Below are positions 27,605 to 31,339 of a stretch of DNA of 64,000 bases, one piece after another; within the stretch, counting starts at the first letter, position 1, and each line of letters begins with the position of its first letter. Origin of the DNA: Neophaeotheca triangularis (lineage: Eukaryota). The notes under the pieces were generated by a model that was not told where the DNA came from, ran no database searches, and worked only from the letters and a program-made list of their open reading frames with translations. Location of the stretch: positions 620,001 through 684,000 of the forward strand of contig BAAIJX010000005.1 of the NCBI GenBank assembly GCA_054600435.1, read 5' to 3'. Position numbers and translations under genes: made by a program.

Positions 27605-27913
27605 TATGAATAGTGTAGTGTACTTGATCTATGTTTTCTTAAAGATGTCTTTGCTTCACCACGATGGTTAAGCTTGCCATAATTGGGCAGCCATGATTCT
27701 GCCTGCGTCTCACCGCCCGGATTTTCAAGAAGTCGCGCGTCAGTCTATCCGCCTGGAGCTGGAGCTTCAACCTCGCCCCAAACGCAACCACTTGCTCTCA
27801 CTACAGCTACATCTTCCGCCACATCACCACACACCTCCCTTCTATCTTCGAATACCTTCAATTTTTCGTCGCCTACACTCACAGGACCACACTATTGAAG
27901 CAAAACCCCCACA

Positions 27914-28834
27914 ATGAACCACTTCCCTCAAGGCTGGGGCAGAGTACGTCCCCCCAGAATCATCCAAACGCAGCTCAGACACATACACAGACAACTAACC
28001 CTCATCTCCCAGCCCCGCGATGATATCTACGGCCCGTACAACCACTCTTACATGCCTTCGCAACAACAACAACCCATCAGCCACACCCAATCGCCCATCG
28101 TAACCGGCACCTCCGTCCTCGCAATCAAATACAGCACCGGCGTCGTCATCGCCGCCGACAACCTGGCCTCCTACGGCTCCCTCGCCCGCTTCACCGACGT
28201 CAAGCGCCTCAAGCCCTTCAACGCCAAATGCGTTGTGGGCTTCGGGGGCGACGTCAGCGACATGCAGTACCTAGACCGCCTACTCATGAGCCTCGACGTG
28301 GAAGAGAAGTACGCCGGGTCCTCGGCCGCAGACATGGGTCTCTCGTCTGCTCGCGATATCCAGGAGAGCGATGACGGCCAGGGCAAGGTGATGATGAGCG
28401 CGAGGAATCTGCACACCTACCTGGCCAAGGTCATGTACAAGCGGCGTTCGGACTTTAACCCGCTGTGGAATGCGCTGTTGGTTTGCGGGCTGGATGAGCA
28501 GGGTAAGCCGTTTTTGGCCAGTGCGGATTTGCTGGGGACGACTTTCAGCGGGCCCAGCATGGCGACGGGTTTCGGCGCGCACTTGGCTCAGCCGATTCTG
28601 CGTAGGGTTGTGCCGGATGAGAAGGCCACAAAAGACTTGAGCAGGGATGATGCGGTGCAGGCGGTTAGGGAGTGCATGAAGGTGCTATTCTACCGTGATG
28701 CGAGGAGTTCGAATGAGTACAGTTTGGCTGTCGTGGACGAGAAGGGGGTGGAGTTGAAGGAGAATGAGAAGTTGGAGAACCAGAGCTGGGCGTTTGCTGA
28801 GGGTATCAAGGGATACGGTACACAGACGGTCTAG
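27914..28834 (+). CDS. PRE4: 20S proteasome subunit beta-7
   Basis: Motifs TQSPIVTGTSVLAIKY, AADNLASYGSLARF, YKRRSDFNPLWN and VLFYRDARS. Intron 27944-28012 is in frame and unspliced in the ORF track. Confidence 0.95.
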   Translation: MNHFPQGWGRVRPPRIIQTQLRHIHRQLTLISQPRDDIYGPYNHSYMPSQQQQPISHTQSPIVTGTSVLAIKYSTGVVIAADNLASYGSLARFTDVKRLKPFNAKCVVGFGGDVSDMQYLDRLLMSLDVEEKYAGSSAADMGLSSARDIQESDDGQGKVMMSARNLHTYLAKVMYKRRSDFNPLWNALLVCGLDEQGKPFLASADLLGTTFSGPSMATGFGAHLAQPILRRVVPDEKATKDLSRDDAVQAVRECMKVLFYRDARSSNEYSLAVVDEKGVELKENEKLENQSWAFAEGIKGYGTQTV

Positions 28835-29586
28835 AGTAGCGAGGTCTTCAAGCGTGGCGATGGCGAATGAGCAAGTTACGTAGGAGCTCGAGTTGGCGAA
28901 TGCTGCCACGGCTCCTACAATAGCATTGTACAACAGTATATCAATGGCGAATGAGTATTAGACTGCGCCATACGACAGTCCGAGTCTGCAAAACTGATAT
29001 CAGGTTGGTGGACATTACAGATGAGGTCAAAATCACACCCCAAAGCCCTGGAGCTATCTTGTTCTTATGCAAAACATCATTCCCCGATCAGAGCTGCACC
29101 TCTCGAGGCAAAAGCAATCCTCAATCGCATCTTCTTGAACCTCGTCCTTGTCGGAAATCTGTCCAGCTTCCCCTTGTGAATGGCATTGTATGTTTCTAAA
29201 TCGCATGACAAGAAGCCCACAGAGGAGCTCGCAACAAGCAGAGAAAAGTCGGCAGGCAGTATAGAGGCAGCTTCCACGGTGGTACATAACAGAAACCCGT
29301 GCCGTTGAATGTGTGGCGTATTCAATGGGCGCATCTCTTTCGCTACAGCAGTCGCACTTGGGGCCGAAGAGTTACACAGGTGGTGGGTTGGTATGCCTCG
29401 ATACAACGACTTGAAGCCAGTACGGGCAGAGTGATACTGCATGGAGAGAAAGTATCCCAGAGTCACCGGGATGCACTGCACGCTCCCACTTCACTCCGTC
29501 ACCCAAGCAAAGAAGAGCAAAGCAAATAAAACCACTTCAGAAAAGATACCCAACCTCTGCACCAACAGCCAAAAGGGCAAAAGGGC

Positions 29587-29604
29587 AAAAAAAAAAAAAA
29601 AAAA
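29587..29604 (-). terminator. T18 run, Pol III-type terminator
   Basis: A18 on the plus strand, directly abutting the 3' closing helix of the structured element. Confidence 0.55.
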
Positions 29605-30030
29605 CCTGGACCGGCCCAAGCGCGCTTGAGCCCCAGGGGGTCACGTATCGCGGCCGCCTCAGTGTTGAACTGAAACAGACCGGTACCACCAATCGACCTA
29701 GAAATCTGTCCAATTAGCAATGTTAGCAACCGGAACCTAGAATCTGTGAAATCAGTAGGGTTAGAATACACAAACATTACGTCCTCCGCAAGCGCCCCCG
29801 CCACATCTCCGGAGAGAGAGCGGGCGGCCACACACCCCCAGGCCGCGCCACGCTCCCTCTCCCACACCTCCAAGTCCGGAAAGTCCAGGTGATTCCAGGT
29901 GATTCCAGGTTCGAGTCCGGAGAAGTCCAGGCAGGTGAGATTCCCACGTGGTCGCCCACCGTGGTACTAATCACCCAGTCCAGTGCTGCGAGATCCGGCC
30001 GGCTTACGGGACCGGGCCCCGGCGGATTCA
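29587..30030 (-). ncRNA. Candidate structured Pol III ncRNA with a 5S-rRNA-like head
   Basis: The minus strand reads GGGTGA-TTAGTA-CCACG-GTGG-GCGA-CCAC-GTGG-GAA-TCTCACC (5S loop E/helix IV-V, 29934-29975). There is a B-box at 29908-29918, hairpins at 29811-29862, 29652-29681 and 29615-29630, and a T18 run at 29587-29604. The 5' boundary is approximate. Confidence 0.6.
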
Positions 30031-30738
30031 TTGCGTTGTTTCGTTGGTCACTTGCGCGGTGGGTTGATTATATGGTTTGTTTGGGGGTGGCTGGGAGGTG
30101 GTGGCGCTGACGTAGTGAAACGTGGTGGTATGTTTGTTATGGTGGTATGTTTGTTATGTTGGATGTTGCGCAAATTTGTTATGGCTGTTTTGCGACTACC
30201 TATATGCTTGCGCATGCACTATACATCGTCAGTTTGCGCTTCACTTGATGTCTTAAATAAGGGCAATTGACTTGCCTTTAACGATGTCTCCTACGCTGAT
30301 TCCACATCGGAGGACAGTAGCGGCGACGCTGTCAACATCCACCTTCCCACAGCACCGCTTCAGTGATAGAGAGCCTTGTAGCTTTCTGCGCATCGGTGTG
30401 GCAATACTAGGTCGACATGATCGCTTCAGCCATTGTCCTAAAGTAGCGTCAGCAGTCATAATTTGTCGTGCAGCTCGGTCGAGGACAGTGAGAGAAAGCC
30501 GGGAGGCTCACCGGAAACAATCACGAAGAGACGAAAGTACCCATGCAGCAAATTAAACGTATAGCAACCGAATGTTCACTCTGCATTTGAGGGTATCTTT
30601 TCGCAGTAATCAAGCCCAGCAGTCCGACCGTGCCGCCCACTACGCCAATAAACACCAGCCTTGTCCCTTCAACCGTGCACCGACCATATCAATAGCCGCC
30701 CACCGTAACACGTATCCCGGACCCAATGGCTCTATCCC

Positions 30739-31339
30739 TCAAACTCCCACCCCGGCAATCTTCTTCAACTCCATCTCCTTGGTCAACTCTTGATCAAGCA
30801 GCTGCAACTCTTTGACCAAGTCCTGGCAAGCCTTGACCACAGCATCCTTGGGACTGATCTCCCCATCGGTAGCAACGCGCAGCTTGAACATCGCAAACAG
30901 CGGGTGCGGAACTTGGTAAGCGGCGAAGGTGACGTGGTCCGATTTGACGAGTTTGGCGCGGATGAGGTTGCCGAGGGTGTGGTCTTCCTTGTTGAACTCG
31001 AACATGGCTGCGTTTGGGACGCCTGGTAAAAGGAAAGAAGAGAGCGCTGGTTAGAGGGGGTTGCGGATTGCGTGATAGGCGGGTGGACTGCGCTCACGAG
31101 TCTCCATTTCATAGGTGACTTTCTTCTCGCCCTCGCCGAGCAAGAAGAGCTCGTATCTGTCTGGGATGTCAAAATTGCTCGTTTGAATGCTTGGTCCATG
31201 AAGTTTGAGATTGACGCCCAGTTGGGCAAAGGCGGCGTTCTGGGCGATATTGGGTGCGTTCCAGTGCATATTTGGGACGATTGATGCTGCGCTTGTTCTA
31301 TGTACGGTATTGGGAATCCTACCTGTCTGGCGCGTTCAT
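30739..31339 (-). CDS. RPB11: RNA polymerase II subunit RPB11 (3 exons)
   Basis: MNAPDR|YELFLLGEGEKK..|VPNAAMFEFNKEDHTLGNLIR..VTFAAYQVPHPL. Confidence 0.95.

Follow-up and report, generated by a model that had tools for sequence, protein, structure and literature searches.

A probable truncated 5S rRNA pseudogene in the lineage-specific spacer between PRE4 and RPB11

The spacer between the convergent genes PRE4 and RPB11 has been found to hold, on its minus strand, a fragment of a 5S rRNA gene, followed by a tail of about 320 nt of single-copy sequence which ends in a run of 18 thymidines (T18). By origin this fragment is very probably a truncated 5S pseudogene, and for the feature as a whole the reading towards which we lean is that of such a pseudogene lying in ordinary, lineage-specific spacer. 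As a 5S pseudogene it would be an ordinary object, one more relic of a family known to shed many, which marks the spacer at a gene adjacency absent from the other sampled relatives. The locus would matter if the promoter-bearing half of the relic still fired, and otherwise not.

The spacer and its 5S-derived fragment

The window, the whole 64-kb stretch of DNA that was analysed, is fungal DNA. PRE4 corresponds to a plus-strand ORF at 27914-28834 with a proteasome domain (PF00227, E 2.8e-27) and RPB11 to a minus-strand exon at 30739-31005 with an Rpb11-type dimerisation domain (PF13656, E 1.7e-27), the two genes being convergent and separated by a 1.9-kb spacer. A first-pass annotation, made from the sequence alone, reported no credible CDS in this gap. 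This holds, because the nine spacer ORFs of at least 50 aa gave no Pfam family in eight cases and one sub-threshold chance match in the ninth, and because the ORF at 29077-29442 carries insertions of 4 nt and 1 nt in another strain of this organism (the second strain, run X2). Metatranscriptome contigs from two runs (X3 and X4) match PRE4 without mismatches at 28297-28878, 28212-28406 and 28416-28673, and run X3 contributes one short, diverged RNA piece on RPB11 (30949-30996, 8 of its 48 letters differing). No RNA contig of these runs lies on 28926-30863, at a depth of 3-7x which is too low to show absence and so is evidence neither way. One X4 RNA contig joins 27943 to 28013, marking a 69-nt GT..AG intron (27944-28012) near the 5' end of PRE4.

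The features of the spacer are as follows, in the direction of the minus strand:

30072-30067, minus strand: TATAAT, at -30 to -25 of the extrapolated start
30049-29991, minus strand: stretch aligned to the 5S 5' half by the first-pass annotation and by cmscan, not detectably 5S when taken alone
29990-29922, minus strand: 5S rRNA-derived fragment, RF00001 positions 53-120 with a good match to about position 112, also seen through the X2 contigs
about 29976-29971, minus strand: putative IE, by ungapped extrapolation (ICR positions from PMC7279448)
about 29963-29953, minus strand: putative box C, by ungapped extrapolation (ICR positions from PMC7279448)
29921-29605, minus strand: tail, a G+T-rich spacer sequence present once, in which local hairpins, a 10-nt tandem repeat and a chance-level CTAACCCTA occur
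29908-29918, plus strand: B-box-like GGTTCGAGTCC, the only match in the window on either strand, with no tRNA around it
29884-29910, within the tail: 10-nt tandem repeat of 2.7 copies, containing CCTGGA
29604-29587, minus strand: T18, read as A18 on the plus strand, with GCCCTTTTGCCCTTTT after it

At gathering thresholds, Rfam returned no match in the whole 64-kb window. In E-value mode the only meaningful match in the spacer was to RF00001, on the minus strand at 30049-29924 (26.8 bits, E 0.0046, against a threshold of 38), and the same match was obtained in a 2.1-kb scan. Model positions 53-120 alone reach 26.1 bits (E 0.0025) at 29990-29922, so that the proposed 5S 5' half adds 0.7 bits, and the stretch 29986-30085 searched by itself gave no RF00001 match at E<=10. 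The score comes entirely from the 3' half, so that loop E with helices IV/V is intact and helices I-III are undetectable. The former are present with a GCGA loop, a posterior probability near the maximum and 14 pairs in the minimum-energy fold, and the alignment marks many non-pairs in the latter. The loop E and helix IV-V portion which had been claimed for the minus strand is thereby confirmed, as is the prediction that cmscan would return a partial RF00001 match only (it is both partial and sub-threshold), while the "distorted 5S 5' half" described upstream of it is not borne out. A TCCCGT motif does occur at 30011-30006 (minus), 35 nt before TTAGTA, a spacing which we take to be close to that expected in a 5S gene.

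Helix I, in which the two ends of the molecule pair, and helices II/III together with loop C are expected of a functional 5S gene and are lacking at this locus. Also absent, as the first-pass annotation had observed, is a T-run terminator directly after the 5S 3' end, the next minus-strand run of four or more thymidines being T18, about 320 nt downstream. At the columns of the type 1 promoter, the positions of which are given in PMC7279448, IE and box C match well and box A poorly. The first-pass reading is supported in placing on the minus strand a 5S-derived piece that holds the IE/box C part of the internal promoter.

Contigs of the second strain, compared over 27900-31300, connect the fragment to other 5S sequences of the genome. 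Their summed depth is about 112 along this interval but reaches 1881 and 2043 in only the two bins that hold the fragment, summed depth not being equivalent to copy count. Similarity to the extra high-depth contigs is confined to about 29935-29987 and amounts to at least 80%. Two of them continue on the minus strand into GUUGUAUGU and GUUGUAGC, each followed by TTTT, which constitute a normal 5S 3' end with its T-run, and two others diverge at 29971 and 29987; complete and truncated relatives therefore both occur in this genome. The copy in the window lacks GUUGUAUGU, the 3' strand of helix I, a sequence exactly complementary to the 5' end ACAUACGAC printed for Aspergillus 5S-related sequences (PMC5063351, in part). 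The continuation of the extra contigs into a normal 5S end and T-run indicates that the fragment belongs, as a diverged copy, to the dispersed 5S family of this genome, and the basidiomycete-type, foreign origin that had been suggested for the head is not needed to explain it.

The locus combines significant but partial 5S similarity, in the absence of an intact coding sequence, with kinship to the genome's multi-copy 5S family, the two marks of a 5S pseudogene. In filamentous fungi, 18-83% of 5S sequences have been counted as pseudogenes, with truncated copies among them (PMC5555474, in part, citing Rooney and Ward 2005).

The tail and its folding

The sequence behind the fragment is of a different kind. 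In the second strain the depth over the tail is 87-128, against the baseline of about 112, which is the single-copy level; no second copy of the tail occurs within the 64-kb window, and neither flanking direct repeats nor a target-site duplication have been found. On account of these three results the tail is not a SINE or MITE by the available tests, and the dispersed copies with target-site duplications that had been set as a check on the first-pass reading have not appeared. Nor does the tail match a known Rfam family at E<=10, as that reading had anticipated, save for a spurious mir-6794 match (25.9 bits, threshold 74) which reflects a GC-rich hairpin only. The reversed B-box had been correctly located, and the 11-mer is unique in the window. 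A tRNA or B-box relic has been rejected, given that ARAGORN found 0 tRNA genes, no tRNA family matched at E<=10 and the B-box-like 11-mer stands alone on the plus strand.

T18 is present as had been described and is the longest homopolymer in the 64-kb window, where only two runs reach 10 nt or more, and further T4 runs come after it. In a transcribed unit it would act as a Pol III terminator; otherwise it would be a poly(dA:dT) tract. On the plus strand (29520-29604), the A18 comes after 2.6 copies of CAAAAGGG, with an AATAAA some 60 nt before it, an arrangement which resembles a retro-copied poly(A) end; a plus-strand retro-copy ending in A18 was considered and rejected, with no target-site duplication found.

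The reading of the entire unit as a structured RNA has fared poorly against controls. Folding of the 446-nt minus-strand RNA gives -183.3 kcal/mol against -175.7 +/- 6.6 in shuffles (z -1.15), a stability that 17 of 100 shuffled sequences equal or exceed, and the plus-strand fold has a z of -0.20. The hairpins proposed at 29811-29862, 29652-29681 and 29615-29630 are indeed present, but they carry no strand-specific signal, the largest of them (29811-29862) departing from mononucleotide shuffles no less on the plus strand (z -5.2) than on the minus (z -3.2). Likewise, the complementary octamers ACCTGGAC/GTCCAGGT proposed as a closing helix can pair, but the octamer before T18 is weak evidence for such a helix because the CCTGGA to which it is complementary belongs to the 10-nt tandem repeat. 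The asymmetry between G-U and A-C positions, taken earlier as evidence for the minus strand, is compositional. There are 18 G-U pairs in the minus-strand fold and 4 in the plus, yet shuffled minus strands average 20.6, and a strand difference of at least 14 such pairs is seen in 42% of 40 random 320-nt windows; G+T richness accounts for it. The lack of a T-run before T18 is no more informative, stretches of 445 nt without a T4+ run being found in 2150 of 6356 windows and in 43% of shuffles. No measurement made here shows the 320-nt tail to be a new structured RNA.

Taking these results together, the feature is best explained as a truncated and decayed copy of the fungus's own 5S gene, which would have been left by the birth-and-death turnover of dispersed 5S genes in filamentous ascomycetes. 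The 3' half, with loop E, helices IV/V and the IE/box C portion of the promoter, has been retained, perhaps along with an old upstream TATA box, while helices I-III are no longer recognisable and both the 3' strand of helix I and the terminator of the gene are gone. The following 320 nt would be ordinary lineage-specific spacer, GC-rich and prone to slippage, with chance hairpins and a poly(dA:dT) tract at its end. Low-level Pol III read-through to T18 may occur, with a product that would lack any role, and the relic itself presumably has no function of its own.

Between-strain divergence, synteny and alternative readings

An alternative to the dead relic, which we consider unlikely, is that the locus is a Pol III gene that is still active and functional: TFIIIA would bind IE/box C and TFIIIB the TATAAT, with a start near 30042 and read-through to T18. 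The well-kept box C/IE region and the position of the TATAAT both favour it. Ungapped extension of the RF00001 53-120 alignment puts the 5S +1 at about 30042, some 80 nt upstream of box C, and relative to it the TATAAT is placed where TFIIIB would sit. Fungal 5S genes, as in Neurospora, need an upstream TATA box, and box C suffices in yeast. The run of sequence free of T4+ up to T18, with more T4 runs after it, would suit a Pol III unit as well, although such a gap is not unusual. A precedent is provided by AfuSINE3 in Aspergillus fumigatus, where most copies have no terminator and transcription of 2 of 5 has been detected by RT-PCR (PMC5063351, in part).

The divergence between the window and the second strain also bears on this question. 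Within the block 29571-30115, which coincides with the interval from the TATAAT to T18, 4 of 488 covered sites differ, 57 nt of the block (29815-29871) lying outside the listed pieces. The left flank (28835-29475) differs at 16 of 641 sites and the right flank (30116-30349) at 15 of 234, with a 17-nt indel in addition; for comparison, the PRE4 ORF differs at 4 of 921. Fisher's test of the block against both flanks pooled (31 of 875 sites) gives p = 0.002, and against the left flank alone p = 0.04, in a comparison of one strain pair. The low divergence is thus co-extensive with the putative unit, and this block and the TATAAT position are a possible counterpoint to a dead relic, since they fit a live unit. 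The contrast between a well-kept 3' half and an unrecognisable 5' half could, in the same way, reflect selection on the promoter part. Recent common ancestry of the block would leave the same pattern as constraint.

Two further differences between the strains have been noted in the adjoining sequence. At 29446-29570 the second strain has two 140-nt contigs, each with a depth of 68.9, of which one matches the window exactly and the other differs from it in 8 letters; these may represent a heterozygous or mixed sample, deep haplotypes or a diverged duplicate. Just upstream of the 5S relic, at 30123-30167, the 17-nt unit TGGTGGTATGTTTGTTA is tandemly repeated in 2.7 copies, and the second strain has one unit fewer (17 nt missing at 30123).

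Relatives of the locus have been sought in metagenome contigs, where 153 PRE4 relatives were found and the best 80 of the 153 were used (56-75% protein identity). RPB11 was found by tblastn near none of these 80 PRE4 loci (0/80). The only blastn match to the element in them was of 19 nt in one locus (L035, E 0.006), which is noise, and nhmmer together with a regular expression for the 5S motif found nothing over the 564,256 nt of the same 80 loci. In a further run, X19, which has the organism label in common with the others and a more diverged genome, pieces of PRE4 and RPB11 lie on separate contigs of 123.5 kb and 107.6 kb, far from their ends, and no piece falls on the spacer at 80% likeness or more, which is evidence neither way. 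The PRE4-RPB11 adjacency is not conserved and is specific to the lineage, and the spacer is to be seen as a lineage-specific junction because none of the 80 loci has RPB11 or the element and because the X19 genes are on different contigs.

The lineage-specific interval speaks against a live Pol III gene, as do a box A region and an entire 5' half which are not 5S-like, the lack of any thermodynamic or strand-specific structural signal, the tandem 10-mer inside the tail and an estimate of constraint drawn from one strain pair. Such a gene would yield an RNA of about 440 nt, encoded by a single copy and having its own role, the 5S relic having been co-opted as its promoter in a non-mobile exaptation of a type 1 promoter, an outcome which we likewise hold to be doubtful. 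The type 1 (5S) promoter has been described as characteristic of 5S genes only (PMC7279448), and copies of it are also carried by mobile elements. On that description, and mobile elements aside, a cellular RNA that was fixed, single-copy and driven from this promoter would represent a new route to a Pol III gene.

Improbable, in our judgement, is a role of the relic as a cis-acting DNA element, which would bind TFIIIA/TFIIIC and, with the poly(dA:dT) tract, form a nucleosome-free boundary or a 3'-end region between PRE4 and RPB11. Extra Pol III factor sites act as boundaries in yeasts, and the position between two convergent genes, the length of T18 and the conservation of the block between the two strains are all consistent with this, but a factor site with a T-tract would take up only a small part of the conserved block of about 550 nt.

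A long Pol II ncRNA filling the 1.9-kb gap, such as a telomerase RNA with CTAACCCTA (29765-29757) as its template, is very improbable. For two convergent genes the gap is long, and it contains no CDS; CTAACCCTA, which lies on the minus strand in the conserved block, is a 9-mer of 1.5 telomere repeats, complementary to TTAGGG and the sole such 9-mer in the window. Telomerase RNAs of Pezizomycotina are 1.5-2.4 kb in length, with a 9-nt template in Neurospora (PMC3592445, in part). Nevertheless, by our own estimate the 9-mer is within chance, because similar 8-mers occur 12 times in the window. No A4+ run that could serve a triple-helix pseudoknot lies downstream on the minus strand, no telomerase family matched at E<=10, and conservation is poor in the remainder of the gap, which has indels. 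The order of 3'-end elements argues in the same direction: in Aspergilli it is U-tract, 5' splice site, branch point (PMC3603654, in part), while AUACGU (29648), GCUAAC (29727) and the U-tract stand here in reverse order.

The weakest candidate, and one to which we give hardly any credence, is a 5S-derived SINE (SINE3 or AfuSINE3-like) or another mobile element with a 5S promoter, since the layout of a 5S head with an unrelated body and the low-copy 5S-related elements of Aspergillus (PMC5063351, in part) are met by a tail at single-copy depth with no second window copy, by the lack of flanking direct repeats, by a 3' end that is a T-run instead of an A-rich or LINE-like tail, and by a retained 3' half where the Aspergillus elements keep the 5' half.

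Comparison with known systems

Several arrangements in which 5S sequences have been put to other uses, or have decayed, resemble this locus in part. In Yarrowia lipolytica, dicistronic tRNA-5S genes have been described in which a 5S sequence shares a Pol III unit with another segment (PMC2566860). There the tRNA lies upstream as the promoter and the 5S is functional, whereas here a 5S relic lies upstream and the downstream part corresponds to no known RNA. The LTR elements Cassandra and Ajax, as well as SINE3, conserve only the promoter-bearing part of 5S and cannot fold as 5S (PMC10886601, in part), in which they are like the present fragment; they differ from this locus, where LTRs, a target-site duplication and repeated copies are absent.

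AfuSINE3 and SINE3-1_AO are similar in having a 5S head without a 5S terminator and unrelated sequence behind it, of 160-280 nt in those elements, and they have a low copy number with some copies transcribed (PMC5063351, in part). In the same source their 5S part comprises positions 1-64 and about five related copies are given, in contrast to positions of about 53-112 and a tail that is single-copy in the second strain for the locus studied here. A search of the literature on fungi turned up no fixed cellular RNA driven by a 5S promoter, a result that covers that search only.

Classical Aspergillus 5S pseudogenes retain the 5' half of the gene, which is consistent with the AfuSINE3 sequences; in comparison, the present copy has retained the 3' half and is accompanied by a TATA-like box and a block conserved between strains. 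With the truncated 5S pseudogenes of filamentous ascomycetes (Rooney and Ward 2005, as related in part in PMC5555474) it shares the character of a dispersed partial copy with destroyed secondary structure, found alongside complete copies that bear a terminator.
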